From Chitinivibrionales bacterium (GTDB taxonomy: Bacteria > Fibrobacterota > Chitinivibrionia > Chitinivibrionales > WJKA01): a DNA stretch of 15,941 nt. The notes beneath the pieces are model-generated. The model saw only the letters and a list, made by a program, of their open reading frames with translations. It made no database searches and was not told where the DNA came from. The position numbers and the translations under genes were made by a program. Shown one piece after another: positions 282 through 10,900 of the stretch. The DNA lies in assembly GCA_014729375.1 (NCBI GenBank), contig WJKA01000260.1:1-15941 (forward strand), written 5' to 3'. Each line of letters opens with the position of its first letter. Positions within the stretch are counted from its first letter, which is position 1.

Positions 282-863
282 ATGCCTAAAGATATAGAAT
301 TCAAAGGACGTTTTTGGCCTGCTTTTCTGGCGACTTCGATTATCCTGACATTAGGATTTGGAACACGTGTATTGTTTGAATTCGGTATTCCGAATCAACA
401 GGAATTGGCAATTTTTCTCCTTATTGAAATCTCTTTAATTGCATTTGCTGCACTGATATCCCTTATCCTGAGGGCTTTCTATGCTGTGAGATTGCGAAAT
501 TCCAAGATACGCCTATTCGATATGATTGGTTTGTCGACTGCGGTGCCCTTAGAATCCATCTACAGCGGGACCTTCAGGCAATTTAGATTTCTTCGCATTG
601 GGGTTCTACGGAGTGGGTACTGGCCGTTGCCTTTACTTATCATGTCCGACGTGCTGAAATCGAACAAGTTCAAGACGAGCATTCAGAATCACCCATCAAT
701 AAGCGAAAATCTTTCAGCTTTCTTTCTCGAGAACCGGTCATTTCACAATATTGCAGAGGGGCGCCATTCTGTCCCCAGGGAAAAACGACTTGAATTTGCA
801 GGAAAGTTTTTGGTTCTTCTTCTTGTGTGGGTGATAGTTGCCTTGCGAACATTGGTTCTTTAA
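282..863 (+). CDS. Hypothetical membrane protein immediately downstream of the Rhs tip; candidate cognate immunity protein (start uncertain: 138/243/282)
   Basis: The long ORF 138..863 overlaps the Rhs tail by 125 nt. The internal ATG at 282 follows AAGGGG (265-270) and lies 20 nt after the Rhs stop (260-262). The product has about 3 hydrophobic helices (FWPAFLATSIILTLGF; LAIFLLIEISLIAFAALISLIL; FLVLLLVWVIVAL). Its position matches Rhs toxin-immunity organisation. No recognisable family. Confidence 0.3.
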   Translation: MPKDIEFKGRFWPAFLATSIILTLGFGTRVLFEFGIPNQQELAIFLLIEISLIAFAALISLILRAFYAVRLRNSKIRLFDMIGLSTAVPLESIYSGTFRQFRFLRIGVLRSGYWPLPLLIMSDVLKSNKFKTSIQNHPSISENLSAFFLENRSFHNIAEGRHSVPREKRLEFAGKFLVLLLVWVIVALRTLVL

Positions 864-1075
864 TAAGGGTTACCAATCATTGTCGGATTCCGAGTCAAAT
901 TTGTAGAGTCACCTTTGGACAGATGCCGGTTGCCTTTTTGCTTTCGGCCACCGATGGCTCTTCATGGCAATACGATTCGCTGGGAAACATGATTTACAAT
1001 GACGACGGCACCGATGAATGGGATTATGAGTATTCTCCGGAAAACCGGCTTATGAGCGATAATACTATTCAATAA
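827..1075 (+). pseudogene. Orphan/decayed YD-repeat (Rhs core) fragment
   Basis: The translation contains two textbook YD-repeat motifs: WQYDSLGNMIY (xYDxxGNhh) and WDYEYSPENRLMS (YxYxxxNRL). It stops after NTIQ with no DPxGL end or toxin tip, so it is too short to be a functional Rhs protein. Confidence 0.5.
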
Positions 1076-1236
1076 TTTCAGCAAAAATGAAGTGCATATT
1101 CTGATGAATTCGTTTTGATAAAAACGCTGCAGCTCAGTGCTGTCCAAAATAAATTGAAATATCGAAAATATTTGTCATTGCAGTGAATATAGCCCGATTT
1201 TTTATCGTAATTGAATCGTAGTTTACAATCTAAGAG

Positions 1237-1414
1237 AATGGAACACGGATGCCACGGATGCGACGGATATTCACGGATTTTGCTTTTATGGTTAAGAAAA
1301 TAGAAGAAAAATGGGCCCATTCATAGAAATTGCAGCCTGATTTTCTTAACTCAGATATTTCCAGACTATTCAGATCCGTGTGAATCCGTCGCATCCGTGG
1401 CATCTGTGTTCCAT
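1237..1414. repeat. Large imperfect dyad-symmetry element: ~40-bp inverted arms (1237-1278 / 1374-1414) made of phased ACGGAT/ATCCGT units, nested inner IR (gttaagaaaat 1291-1301 / gattttcttaac 1339-1350) and central palindrome ATGGGCCCAT (1311-1320)
   Basis: Left arm: aatggaaCACGGATgcCACGGATgcgACGGATattCACGGAT. Right arm, its near reverse complement: ATCCGTgtgaATCCGTcgcATCCGTggcATCtGTgttccatt. The hexamer repeats every 9-10 bp (helical phasing). The core is AT-rich. The small ORFs on both strands here (e.g. the shared peptide SHPWHxCSIL) are artefacts of the symmetry. Confidence 0.7.
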
Positions 1415-1521
1415 TTTGGACAAGACTGGCTGCAGCTATATCTTTCATCATGTGAAAGACCCGGTTCCGTATGCTATTTTTCCCTCTGATGAAAGCAGTT
1501 CTCCATCGGATTCCCGATTTC

Positions 1522-2931
1522 TCAATCCGGCTTCTGTGTCTCTTCAAGAAATTCGATATACAAGCGGTAATTTACCACATGCCGCTTGACAATGAATGTC
1601 GCTCCTGCTCTCAGGAGGATTGTGAAGAACCCGTAACGCAGCACCCGTTTGAAATCCCATACCAGGGCATCAAGTACAATATTTGCAACAAGCATCAATC
1701 CTTCAATAGAAACGCGCCACAACGAGTAGAATGTGCGGTACGCATTCAGCACGTCTTCCTGAAGCATCCAGGGACTGATTGATTTTGGCTGAAAAACAAG
1801 AAACATGCCGTTAAAATATTCCCACCGTGTATGATAGAGACGGTGTTCACCGCATATTTTCTCGTAGAGACGGGTCCCGGGAAACGGCGTAAGGATCATA
1901 AACTGCACGGTGTCGATATGGTGACGGAGCGCAAAATCAACTGTCTCATGGATCGTCTCTCGCGTATCATTGTCTTCACCAAACATGAACATGCCATGAA
2001 TGCTTATCCCTTTTTTATGGATAATATCGATCGCATTTTCTATATCGCTTTTTGTCTGCGATTTGTGAAGCGCTTTAAGGGTGGCATCGTTGATCGATTC
2101 GAATCCGATAAAAAAGAACCGGCACCCGGTCTGTTCCATGCGCTCAATCATTTCCGGATCTCTGGAAATGTCCGACCGTACCTGCGCAGTCCAGGTGATA
2201 TCGAGATTCTCCTGTTCGATCAGATCACAGAGGCGTTGAATACGGTTCCTGTTTGCCGTGAAATTATCATCATAAAAGAAAATATCGCGGGTTGTAAAAT
2301 AGCGCAGCGCATGCCTGATCTCCCGGACAATCCGCTCAGCAGACTGCATGCGGAATTTTTTCCCAAAAATTTTTGTCACCGTGCAGAAGTTGCAGTCGAA
2401 CGGACAGCCGCGGGAGGTCATTACAGGAATAATAGCCATCGATTCGACACCTTCAAGAAGTGAATATTCCACCAGCGGAAGGTTTTCGATATTGTCGATC
2501 GGCCTGCCCCCTATGATTTTTTCTTCATGATCGCGCTCGATAATATCAACAATATTGCCCTCAGCTTCGCCCGTCACCACCGTATCGGCTACTTCAACGA
2601 AATCTTCAGGTACCAGCGATGCGTGAATTCCACCCACAATCACTCTGGATTCCGGGTACACTTTTTTTATCTGATATGCCAGAAGCTTGGCCCTGTTTGC
2701 ACTCACAGTCAATGCTGATAAACAGTAAACATCCGCCTTAATTGTAAAAGGATCAATTTTCCGTGAGAGAATGTTTTCATTGTATATTTTTACCGAATAT
2801 CCGGCATTATGAAGGATTGTTCCGAGATACAGGCAGCCTGTCAAGGGAAGACGCATGTAATTTTCAAAGACATTTGTCTCCGCGCCCGACGGTTCGATAA
2901 AGGCAATCCTTCTGGCATGCCCGGAATTCAT
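1522..2931 (-). CDS. B12-binding (class B) radical SAM protein
   Basis: An N-terminal cobalamin-binding domain (RIAFIEPSGAETNVF..., VIVGGIHASLVPEDF) is followed by a radical SAM core with CPFDCNFC (CxxxCxxC) and a glycine-rich SAM motif (FFIGFES). No SPASM-type extra Cys cluster is present. Start chosen at ATG 2931-2929 (MNSGHARRIAF), which overlaps the upstream gene's stop as ATGA. The track ORF extends 88 codons further, and I read those as non-coding. Confidence 0.85.
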   Translation of the reverse strand: MNSGHARRIAFIEPSGAETNVFENYMRLPLTGCLYLGTILHNAGYSVKIYNENILSRKIDPFTIKADVYCLSALTVSANRAKLLAYQIKKVYPESRVIVGGIHASLVPEDFVEVADTVVTGEAEGNIVDIIERDHEEKIIGGRPIDNIENLPLVEYSLLEGVESMAIIPVMTSRGCPFDCNFCTVTKIFGKKFRMQSAERIVREIRHALRYFTTRDIFFYDDNFTANRNRIQRLCDLIEQENLDITWTAQVRSDISRDPEMIERMEQTGCRFFFIGFESINDATLKALHKSQTKSDIENAIDIIHKKGISIHGMFMFGEDNDTRETIHETVDFALRHHIDTVQFMILTPFPGTRLYEKICGEHRLYHTRWEYFNGMFLVFQPKSISPWMLQEDVLNAYRTFYSLWRVSIEGLMLVANIVLDALVWDFKRVLRYGFFTILLRAGATFIVKRHVVNYRLYIEFLEETQKPD

Positions 2932-3413
2932 CGTGCCCGTTCCGCTATGAGAATGCTTGCGCCCGTAAAAATAAAAACAGTCCACCACAGTTGGGTGCTG
3001 AAAGAAAAGACAAGGATAAATACCGCGGAAATGGAAAGAAGCAGCAGTCCGGTCAAAAGAAAAATATAGCTTTTTCTGCAGAGAAAAAACGCCGCGAAAA
3101 AGGCCAATCCTAAAAAGCCGATAAAAAACGGCCATAAATCCGAAAGAACGGACCATGAGGAAAAATTCGCATACAAGGCCAATCCACTGAAACATACAAG
3201 GTAAATGCCGGGAATAAGATATCCCGGCTCTTGTCTTCCGCGGGCGCTGAATATACCAAGAAATCCAATACCAAGTACGGTTATTATCAAAGGCCAGAGT
3301 TTGTGAATGAATGAAAGCGGAGTAAATGCTTCAACGGCAAGAAGAATGCCAATTGCTATCAATAAAAATGCAAATCGGCCGTTACGACGGGCTTTTTCGT
3401 GGACCTGGTCCAT
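2928..3413 (-). CDS. Small polytopic membrane protein (about 5 TM helices), translationally coupled to the radical SAM gene
   Basis: Start ATG 3413-3411 is preceded by GAGGT with a 5-nt spacer. The protein MDQVHEKARRNGRFAFLLIAIGILLAVEAF... is almost entirely hydrophobic helices. The stop TGA 2930-2928 overlaps the rSAM ATG (ATGA). Confidence 0.65.
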   Translation of the reverse strand: MDQVHEKARRNGRFAFLLIAIGILLAVEAFTPLSFIHKLWPLIITVLGIGFLGIFSARGRQEPGYLIPGIYLVCFSGLALYANFSSWSVLSDLWPFFIGFLGLAFFAAFFLCRKSYIFLLTGLLLLSISAVFILVFSFSTQLWWTVFIFTGASILIAERAR

Positions 3414-9313: not shown

Positions 9314-10432
9314 ATGATTTCACTGCGAAACACCCGCACCTTCCTGTTTGCTCTTACCATTATCTGCACAGCGTTTGCTGCAGACAATTCCGGCGGCCTG
9401 CGGCTCCACGGATCGATGTACTCGGACCTGGGTGTTGTGCAGGAATACGATGCGGATGATACGGATACATTCAAGTTTACCGGATTGACAAACCTCTCGC
9501 TCAATTTCAGGAACACCAACCGCAGATACGGAAAAATCGAAGGACTTCTCGATCTGTTCATGCCGTATGGCGTTGCCGCCGACCGGATATTTGAAACAAT
9601 CCCGGATGATGCATTTCCCGACAGCAGTGTCGATGAATTTGTCACGCTGTTCTCCGTACGCGGCTCGCCGCTGCTTCTTGATGTACGCAATTTGTACTTT
9701 TCATTTTATCTGCCGTTTGTCGACATTACAGTCGGTCGCCGGATCATCAATTTCGGCAAAGGGTCCATTTTTTCCCCTGTTGACATTTTTTCATCAGTTG
9801 ACCTTACCGACCTGAATTACCGCCGCTCAGGGAGCGATATTATCAGCCTTCGGTTCCCCTTCGGCTTGCTCTCCGGGTGCGATATTGTTGCGGGCCTTCC
9901 TCTTTTCGACGACTCCTATGCTGCGGCCGCTAAATTGTTTACAACTGTCAAAGGCTTCGATTTCAGCCTGGTCGGGCTCTATAAGAATGCCGGTACCTCG
10001 CCCGCGAAAAATACGCAAACAACTGCAGGGATCGCGTTTAAGGGAGATATCGAGATCGGCGCGTACGGTGAAGCAGTTGCTCATTATGATCATGACAGGG
10101 AAATGCTTTTTTTCGAAGCCATGGCCGGCGCGGATTACTCACTAAGGGAGCGCTGGATATTCACGGCGGAATACATGTACAAGGACCCCGGCTATGCCAG
10201 CGCGCTTCGGGGACAGCATAATGCATTTGGCTCGGTGCAATATGCTTTTAATGATATCATGAATATTTCCACCGGACTGATCGGCACGATTGATGACCGG
10301 CAGGCTGTCGGGATTGTCCGGTATTACTATAATATCCTGCAAAATGTCGACTGGACCGTTTATATTCAGGGCGTCGGCTCCAACGAAATTGCGCTTGTTA
10401 ACTATATGACACGCGTTGAAATAAAATTCTGA
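9314..10432 (+). CDS. Predicted outer-membrane beta-barrel protein (signal peptide, C-terminal ...VEIKF beta-signal)
   Basis: SPI signal MISLRNTRTFLFALTIICTAFA|ADN. The sequence shows alternating hydrophobic/polar beta-strand periodicity throughout and is rich in Y/G/D/N. It ends in the aromatic-terminated pattern V-E-I-K-F typical of BAM substrates. No family recognised. Confidence 0.6.
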   Translation: MISLRNTRTFLFALTIICTAFAADNSGGLRLHGSMYSDLGVVQEYDADDTDTFKFTGLTNLSLNFRNTNRRYGKIEGLLDLFMPYGVAADRIFETIPDDAFPDSSVDEFVTLFSVRGSPLLLDVRNLYFSFYLPFVDITVGRRIINFGKGSIFSPVDIFSSVDLTDLNYRRSGSDIISLRFPFGLLSGCDIVAGLPLFDDSYAAAAKLFTTVKGFDFSLVGLYKNAGTSPAKNTQTTAGIAFKGDIEIGAYGEAVAHYDHDREMLFFEAMAGADYSLRERWIFTAEYMYKDPGYASALRGQHNAFGSVQYAFNDIMNISTGLIGTIDDRQAVGIVRYYYNILQNVDWTVYIQGVGSNEIALVNYMTRVEIKF

Positions 10433-10900
10433 TCCGCGCCGCAAATAGCTGATTATCAGAATCATGCTTCTTTCCGCCAGTTTCTTTGAATTATTTTTGC
10501 AGAATCGACGCTTTTTTATTAGATTATATATAATCCTGCATTCCGCAGTTGAGTGTGGATGATACGTGTAAGATGTTGTGTGAGATCGAATTGTGAAAAA
10601 AGGAGTCCTACCCGGGGAGGTAAGGCGAGGCTTTTCGCAATTCAAGGTTGCGCAACAGCTTACGCCTAGCGCCGCAATTCAACTACGGAATTCAGGATAA
10701 TAATTCAGTAAAAGGAAGGTAGTTCCGGGTGCTGAACGCTCCGGCATAAAGTTGAGGGAGAAATCAGTTCAGTAAAAGGCTTTCTCCAGTAATTTCCTTT
10801 CCTTTTTTCATTATCAGTATGGCAGTTCAGTTATTCAGACTAAATGGCGGTCTGAATGTAACTCTCTGATTAAAAAACACTCACATTTCAAGGGGGGCCT

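Follow-up and report, generated by a model that had tools for sequence, protein, structure and literature searches.

A heptamer-array palindrome in a Chitinivibrionales contig as a probable gene-less member of a widespread repeat family linked to genes for the putative nuclease GxxExxY

Miniature inverted-repeat transposable elements (MITEs) such as Correia/NEMIS and Nezha derive from insertion sequences of the DDE type, while free-standing homing-endonuclease genes include PD-(D/E)XK ones such as I-Ssp6803I, and the rRNA-specific intervening sequences of 23S rRNA hold a small open reading frame (ORF) for a four-helix-bundle protein inside a long inverted-repeat stem. The main well-understood case of dispersed palindromes with a dedicated enzyme is that of the repetitive extragenic palindromes (REPs) of Proteobacteria, the REP doublets forming hairpins (REPINs) and the REP-associated tyrosine transposases (RAYTs). 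REPs are palindromes of 20–40 bp that carry an unpaired tag, GTAG or CGTC, on one side (PMC3733652). Their enzyme is a transposase of the HUH/Y1 type (TnpA-REP), and RAYTs are typically single-copy. Here we describe a palindrome at positions 1237–1415 of a 15,941-bp stretch of DNA, referred to below as the window, which is the whole of one contig from a metagenome-assembled genome (MAG) of Chitinivibrionales (Fibrobacterota). We consider it likely that this element, probably together with a tail reaching to about position 1430, belongs to a widespread family of heptamer-array palindromes linked to GxxExxY genes, of which it would be a solitary copy without a gene.

As we propose it, an arm of this family would be an array of three or four CRCNGAT heptamers (CACGGAT in the window) with a period of 9–10 bp, the two arms being inverted with respect to each other. 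The full form would measure about 540–610 bp and would carry a gene for a GxxExxY protein of 120–130 aa, of the PD-(D/E)XK type (PF13366 / TIGR04256), either inside a hairpin or between two of them. The repeat family is very widespread and apparently undescribed in the searchable literature and in Rfam.

The palindrome and its relatives

The element of the window is a 179-bp palindrome made of two inverted 42-nt arms, which are 90% complementary and stand 95 nt apart. Its left arm (1237–1278, + strand) reads AATGGAA-CACGGAT-GC-CACGGAT-GC-GACGGAT-ATT-CACGGAT, that is, the outer flank AATGGAA followed by heptamers at 1244 (CACGGAT), 1253 (CACGGAT), 1262 (GACGGAT) and 1272 (CACGGAT). The spacing of 9, 9 and 10 bp bears out the four (C/G)ACGGAT units per arm which an earlier, sequence-only reading of this DNA had described. 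The right arm (1374–1415, − strand) is the mirror of the left, with ATCCGTG at 1374, ATCCGTC at 1384, ATCCGTG at 1393 and ATCTGTG at 1402, followed by TTCCATT; the mirrored ATCCGT given for this arm by the same reading is found in three units, but the last one is ATCTGT. The arm heptamers of the window fit (C/G)AC(G/A)GAT, and seven of the eight also fit CRCNGAT, the exception being GACGGAT / ATCCGTC. The outer flanks AATGGAA and TTCCATT are included in the palindrome. The units had further been called “helically phased”; their spacing is indeed regular, but the term is a loose one, since the period is 9–10 bp and not 10.5.

Between the arms lies a non-coding core, or loop, of 95 bp (1279–1373, no strand assigned) with nested palindromes of its own. 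The second, inner inverted repeat noticed earlier is present and 100% complementary (GTTAAGAAAAT / ATTTTCTTAAC at 1291–1301 / 1340–1350). The palindrome described as central exists as well, with ATGGGCCCAT at 1311–1320 extending to the 12-mer AATGGGCCCATT at 1310–1321 as the full palindrome, but, relative to the dyad centre of the arms, it is shifted to the left by about 10 bp. Private nested palindromes of this kind also occur in other long members of the family, e.g. at loci L011 and L109.

The palindrome with its phased inverted arms is real, and chance is excluded as its source. A pattern of two phased units (ACGGATNNNACGGAT, at most one mismatch) has five matches in the window compared to 0.10 expected, and none of 200 shuffles reaches five. 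Likewise, the element strand folds at −82.1 kcal/mol, compared to −42.8 ± 4.2 kcal/mol for shuffles (z = −9.4). A pattern scan and comparison revealed no second copy of the element in the 15.9-kb window. The core shows no similarity to 120 related loci, and hmmsearch with its filters off detected no remnant of GxxExxY in it. Rfam yielded nothing at the gathering threshold on the window, where only sub-threshold matches to generic hairpins were obtained, and no Rfam family covers the hairpins of 18 related loci. An exact-string literature search with 16-mers of the element found no paper.

Related arrays were collected by scanning one genome per species (1.2e12 positions) for CACGGATN3ACGGATN3ACGGAT, which has 19 fixed bases. 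At least 120 loci matched, where our own arithmetic gives a chance expectation of about 4. Among the matches listed are bacteria of the Verrucomicrobiota, Planctomycetota, Acidobacteriota, Bacteroidota, Chloroflexota, Leptospirales and spirochaetes, Nitrospirota, Nitrospinota, Armatimonadota, KSB1, Gemmatimonadota and Desulfobacterota, a few Bacillota and Cyanobacteria, and four archaeal MAGs (two Methanoperedens, one Methanosarcinales and one Thermoplasmatota). A few matches are coding tandem repeats, e.g. at L003 and L102. Most are short intergenic hairpins in which a loop separates an ACGGAT array from an ATCCGT array, and their cores are not conserved. At the listed loci the arrays often form close inverted pairs that share the 9, 9, (10) spacing and have conserved outer flanks, and the genes beside the listed arrays are ordinary, diverse housekeeping genes. 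The inner distance between the arms ranges from about 12 to about 500 bp when these genome loci are pooled with the gene-selected loci described below. Solitary copies make up about 97% of the sampled arms, and solitary hairpins are duplicated within single contigs at L041 and L040.

Two subtypes of arm can be distinguished: a three-unit type, “tTtaAC-CACGGAT”, in bacteria of the Planctomycetes–Verrucomicrobia–Chlamydiae (PVC) group and Acidobacteriota, and a four-unit type with 9, 9, 10 spacing, “ATaGAA-CACGGAT...” (GAA-type), to which the arms of the window belong. The left arm of the window matches the GAA-type consensus ATaGAA-CACGGAT.aCACGGATt..ACGGATt..CACtGAT, which was drawn from 27 arms of other genomes. 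Moreover, the window arms are 88–92% identical over 36–41 nt to arms at Methanoperedens, Methanosarcinales, anammox and Nitrospirae loci, and the element is a member of this family.

Covariation of the stem was tried as an explanation of the arm sequences and failed, the spacers not being kept complementary. The 2-nt spacers are complementary between the arms in about 55% (outer) and about 32% (inner) of cases, and overall, including the fixed C, in 58% compared to 48% with shuffled partners. Since the heptamers are conserved while the spacers are free to mismatch, it is the sequence of the heptamers and not the stem as such that is kept, which points to sequence recognition rather than to a generic stem. 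In this respect the arms resemble recognition modules of a repeated element of the mobile type.

These features bear on a second kind of explanation, in which the element would be a bidirectional terminator, or a stabiliser of mRNA 3′ ends, for the convergent Rhs-like and radical SAM (rSAM) transcripts on either side of it, with the repeats being incidental. The sequence-only reading had likewise considered a long stem-loop that terminates the rSAM transcript. The position in a convergent intergenic spacer, 162 nt after the stop at 1075 and 107 nt after the stop at 1522, would suit this role, as would the very stable stem-loop (−82 kcal/mol), the A-runs before and T-runs after many GAA-type arms elsewhere, and the leaning of solitary copies towards convergent (21) over divergent (11) spacers. 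However, a consensus scan called no intrinsic terminator that spans the element, and the stem is far longer than that of a typical terminator. Since a run of four T (four U in the transcript) follows the stem on the + strand only and no U-tract is present on the − strand, from which rSAM is transcribed, termination would probably be at most a side effect. PVC-type copies even have their T-runs before the stem and their A-runs after it, the wrong way round for a terminator. Furthermore, this explanation does not account for the same heptamer across phyla including archaea, with mismatching spacers, nor for arrays that specifically flank one family of nuclease genes, and we regard it as unlikely.

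Phased short repeats on both arms and an AT-rich core would also be expected of an iteron-type replication origin, as had been suggested for this site, or of an array of operators bound by a host transcription factor or by a partition protein. We regard this as highly improbable: no rep, par or initiator gene is present on the 15.9-kb contig, the repeats stand on inverted arms, and the same arrays occupy many chromosomal intergenic sites beside unrelated housekeeping genes, with several of them per 8 kb in certain genomes. A plasmid database gave one weak match, from Runella, and viral contigs gave none, with no relatives of GxxExxY among them.

Some further repeats were noticed at the collected loci. 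At L040, in an anammox MAG, the stretches 1380–1440 and 2410–2470 (− strand) show a CACGGAT arm followed by three CACTAAT units with 10-bp spacing in the same orientation; about 110 bp are duplicated there 1 kb away, and another heptamer variant occurs within one element. Single arms recur in tandem at L034 (3954–4294, three copies with a period of 157–159 bp) and at L108 (2408–2663, four copies with a period of 77 bp), so arms can belong to larger tandem repeats. A palindrome of another kind, with arms made up of arrayed 6–7-nt units (GTGAAGC, GTGAAAC, CGTAAAA), was observed at L136 (3920–4010) and L140 (2620–2960); the site is orthologous in the two contigs, and the loop measures 47 bp in the one but 297 bp in the other. 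Tandem-repeat arms may therefore characterise a broader class of palindromes. The Acido-Lenti-1 RNA (RF01687) scores above its gathering threshold at L018 (5924–5969) and L041 (64–109), where it does not overlap with the hairpins.

Linkage of the arrays to GxxExxY genes

All-against-all clustering of the ORFs at the 120 listed loci revealed no transposase or other enriched family near the arms. The largest cluster consisted of spurious ORFs that read through the arms themselves. The only recurrent small ORF adjoining the arms encodes GxxExxY (TIGR04256, PF13366 PDDEXK_3), which is present at 3 of the 120 loci listed (L075, L085 and L112).

A reverse test was carried out on 79 metagenome loci picked solely for encoding a GxxExxY relative, a phylogenetically narrow sample (70–89% identity to one seed) in which 72 genes were evaluable. 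Arms with at least three exact units were 14-fold denser within ±150 bp of the GxxExxY gene (1.06 per kb vs 0.076 per kb in the remainder of the same loci). With the relaxed heptamer CRCRGAT, phased arrays were detected at 70 of the 72 GxxExxY genes, and on both sides of 49 of them, compared to 2 of 37 control ORFs; loci that at first seemed empty hold CGCGGAT variants. The linkage between array and gene is therefore tight and near-universal in this sample.

Two geometries were observed. Either a complete hairpin ends 15–17 bp before the ATG, with another arm or hairpin 6–30 bp past the stop, or the GxxExxY gene lies inside the loop, in which case the inner distance is 437–500 bp. The gene is also found in several copies within single contigs. 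Moreover, in contigs of Bacteroidales and Treponema, 11 of 11 further GxxExxY genes have flanking arrays of this architecture, built from lineage-specific units (CACAGAT, CACGAAT, GCGAAT and AGGAAT). Gene and array are thus linked in the three-unit PVC type and in the Bacteroidales and Treponema variants. Most of these 11 genes are wedged between co-directional operon genes, such as hisG/hisB, two POR subunits, ilvD/ilvB and two epimerases. Between hisG and hisB of one Treponema species (contigs L201–L210), the left arm upstream of the GxxExxY gene (about 2460–2500) has three CACAGAT units in 8 of 10 contigs; L201 retains one unit after a 20-bp deletion, and the first unit of L210 is mutated to CTCAGAT, which means that the left arm varies between Treponema strains.

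The Bacteroidales and Treponema loci, where the loop contains the gene together with its ribosome-binding site between co-directional operon genes (hisG/hisB, POR subunits, ilvD/ilvB), invite an explanation at the RNA level: the long and stable stems might undergo processing of the RNase III type, comparable to that of rRNA intervening sequences, by which an inserted selfish ORF is insulated within host transcripts or cut out of them, and the copy in the window would be an emptied stem. Neither the conservation of the heptamer nor the solitary copies at untranscribed-looking sites would be explained in this way. Co-orientation of the GxxExxY unit with its neighbours, seen in the Bacteroidales and Treponema contexts, was considered as a general rule and fails in the Verrucomicrobia sample. 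We judge the RNA-level explanation distinctly unlikely as the account of the element, although it is compatible with membership in a nuclease-linked family and does not exclude it.

GxxExxY proteins comprise 120–140 aa; D68 and K80 are invariant and E78 is nearly so, the three residues being arranged as D...ExK. The residue pattern and the structural model mark GxxExxY as a compact PD-(D/E)XK fold and hence a putative nuclease. The AlphaFold model has a mean pLDDT of 94.7, and its nearest solved folds according to Foldseek are Cas4 SSO0001 and lambda-type exonucleases, with TM-scores of about 0.55–0.62, which makes them generic PD-(D/E)XK neighbours; the catalytic domain of I-Bth0305I is a weak fold match. 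A sequence search of the PDB with the GxxExxY profile returned no solved relative. A survey of PD-(D/E)XK proteins lists the function of PF13366 / TIGR04256 as “Unknown” and reports “multiple transfers” between Bacteria and Archaea (PMC3424549). Literature searches for GxxExxY, PDDEXK_3, PF13366 and TIGR04256 returned incidental mentions only and no paper that links the family to repeats or to REP/REPIN.

Hairpin, gene and hairpin behave as a discrete unit of about 540–610 bp, which recurs in unrelated contexts and has sharp boundaries: homology between copies ends at the outer arm edges, both for the two copies of L123 compared to L127 and for L187 compared to L191, which are 92% identical over 609 bp. 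Between L144 (2404–3038) and L171 (2279–3008), the flanking genes are conserved and the GxxExxY unit with its arms is inverted, consistent with an inversion via the arms or with re-insertion. Loops longer than 300 bp hold either the GxxExxY gene or non-coding DNA, and no decayed GxxExxY remnants were found in loops of intermediate length. The apparent 572-bp loop of L123 proved to be two separate hairpins around a gene fragment.

Among the options offered by the sequence-only reading, the MITE or recombination site comes nearest to these results, as far as a dispersed family is concerned, with related copies in a second Chitinivibrionales contig (L121). Its classical form is not supported. A deletion derivative of a DDE-transposase insertion sequence, with subterminal transposase-binding repeats in its terminal inverted repeats, would agree with the terminal inverted arms and their phased repeats, the multi-copy dispersed family, the variable core and a DUF772 transposase fragment in a variable region of L121. 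However, about 200 loci yielded no transposase between inward-facing arms 1–3 kb apart and no long autonomous element bounded by such ends. There is also no transposase family enriched near the arms, and the only cargo found between arms is the 120-aa nuclease gene. At the window element, the flanks (TAAGAG before AATGGAAC, and TTGGAC after GTTCCATT) form no direct repeat and thus no target-site duplication, nor was one seen at unit junctions. An origin as a DDE-type MITE is very unlikely in our view.

Surroundings on the contig and the related contig L121

A one-sided tail, ATTTTGGACAAGACTGG (1413–1430, + strand), also named the TTTTGGAnAAGnCTG tail, abuts the right arm; it represents either an extension of the element that is specific to the lineage or a sequence preferred as a target. 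L121, the closest related contig, has two hairpins built in the same way from units of the CGCYGAT type, and the right arm of both is followed by TATTTTGGAnAAGnCTG, i.e. the tail of the window at 1413–1430, the shared part being TATTTTGGAnAnnnCTG. Two hairpins of like architecture with the same tail indicate that the lineage has a dispersed family. An empty-site comparison with L121 was precluded since synteny with the window is kept on the ABC/FtsX side only and is lost on the element's side of the rSAM gene.

To the left of the element, the stretch 1126–1236 (− strand) may tentatively be viewed as a second, decayed and inverted element that lies tail-outward beside the intact one. An inverted-repeat search and alignment located an inverted copy of the tail, CAGTGCTGTCCAAAAT, at 1135–1150 and GCTGCAGC at 1126–1133; together, GCTGCAGC...TGTCCAAAAT (1126–1150) is an inverted copy of the tail plus GCTGCAGC after the right arm (1413–1436). 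The 86 bp beside the inverted tail copy contain degenerate units of the ATCG/CGAT type.

The left neighbours of the element are two overlapping ORFs, 138–863 and 827–1075 (+ strand), without a Pfam or NCBIfam match. A frame-2 translation of 138–1075 contains YD-repeat-like strings (YDSLGNMIYNDDGTDEWDYEYSPENRL), which would fit the label of a decayed Rhs fragment given to them earlier. On the right, a gene for a B12-binding rSAM protein (1522–3195, − strand) is convergent to them, and SPFH, ABC/FtsX and beta-helix/PA14 genes follow beyond it. The rSAM ORF encodes 557 aa, and since its homologues have 465–490 aa and cover about 83–85% of the ORF, the true start probably lies some 85 codons after the first ATG. 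An exact-sequence look-up of this protein found no record. Two ORFs that overlap the element, 1078–1320 and 1230–1547 (both − strand), matched no family.

Two further observations were made in L121. A gene for a LiaF-like membrane protein overlaps the rSAM start. The variable region downstream of rSAM contains, at 10390–10520, six or seven copies of (T)GCTCTGACA(A) in direct orientation and about 20 bp apart; this iteron-like array, near the DUF772 transposase fragment, is unrelated to the heptamer hairpins.

Interpretation and comparison with known systems

The near-universal tight linkage, the conservation of the unit sequence without pairing of the spacers and the homogeneity of the units within an array lead us to infer that the heptamers are recognition sites of the GxxExxY nuclease and that the nuclease drives the spread of the family. 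The heptamers would act as cis sites bound by the nuclease or by a partner protein, the nuclease would act on the arrays or on an extruded hairpin, and copying through arm homology would spread the element. Solitary hairpins, which are far more numerous than the full form, would then be non-autonomous copies comparable to MITEs or REPINs, spreading as hairpins as the duplicates at L041 suggest, or solo relics from which the gene was lost by recombination between two flanking hairpins. The copy in the window would be inert in its convergent intergenic spacer, with any terminating or RNA-stabilising effect being secondary.

Several points weigh against this interpretation. A profile search detected no GxxExxY gene anywhere in the window or in the 17 kb of L121, and no four-unit arm of the GAA-type, the subtype of the window, was found beside the sampled GxxExxY genes, which themselves form a narrow sample. 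No polymorphism between empty and filled sites was found for a solitary hairpin, and no target-site duplication is present at the unit junctions of L123, L127, L187 and L191. Moreover, the linkage of arm and gene is no proof that the nuclease acts on the arms, which could be RNA-processing stems, insulation of an inserted gene or an insertion target. The homogeneity of the units could stem from replication slippage, and their number varies between Treponema strains.

A bolder and more speculative proposal, which we advance tentatively as the less probable case, is that arrays and GxxExxY nuclease together constitute an unrecognised class of mobile or selfish element, based neither on a DDE nor on an HUH enzyme nor on a recombinase, which would spread by break-induced copying via arm homology and leave gene-less hairpins behind. 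The nuclease would in this case be specific for the phased CRCNGAT units, or else for the hairpin or cruciform that they form. If true, this would explain gene-less hairpins across most non-proteobacterial phyla and some archaea and would provide a function for a large family so far listed as unknown. A functional link would amount to a new mode of spread of small selfish DNA and would account for intergenic hairpins, thousands of them and so far without annotation, in Verrucomicrobiota, Planctomycetota, Bacteroidota, Acidobacteriota and other phyla. Since the sequence of the candidate substrate is known, the nuclease hypothesis is directly testable. The hairpins also matter for annotation, assembly and strain typing, as they can interrupt operons, differ between strains in their number of units and coincide with local inversions and indels. 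The copy in the window is valuable for having led to this widespread family of repeats and for yielding a candidate substrate of a large nuclease family.

Compared to known systems, the family shares with the intervening sequences of 23S rRNA a small ORF that lies within a long stem and has been inserted where the DNA is transcribed, but the ORF family is a different one and the location of the intervening sequences is rRNA-specific; to our knowledge, heptamer arrays have not been reported in them. Homing-endonuclease genes resemble the full form as small selfish nuclease genes wedged between conserved host genes, sometimes in operons. We know of none that are flanked by arrays of short repeats or that leave large populations of gene-less hairpins, whereas the heptamer-array family has both flanking arrays and many gene-less hairpins. 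Like MITEs, its members are non-coding, 100–300 bp long and multi-copy, with terminal inverted repeats and variable cores, but their arms are internally repetitive, and neither a target-site duplication nor a parental DDE insertion sequence was found.

The closest analogue is provided by the REPs and REPINs with their RAYTs, which are likewise short, intergenic, dispersed palindromes, often in inverted pairs (PMC3733652, PMC3116915). In both systems the gene of the enzyme is itself flanked by the repeats while most copies lie far from it, and tandem and convergent spacers are favoured. Membership in the REP/REPIN family was considered and fails, as there is neither a GTAG/CGTC tag nor an HUH transposase: the arms of the window are 42-nt heptamer arrays without a terminal GTAG, and their sole CGTC lies inside the heptamer ATCCGTC (1384–1390), where it is paired. 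Unlike a RAYT, the gene linked to the arrays encodes a putative PD-(D/E)XK nuclease and is multi-copy within single contigs. Furthermore, in contrast to REPs, the heptamer-array family spans many phyla as well as archaea with the same heptamer.

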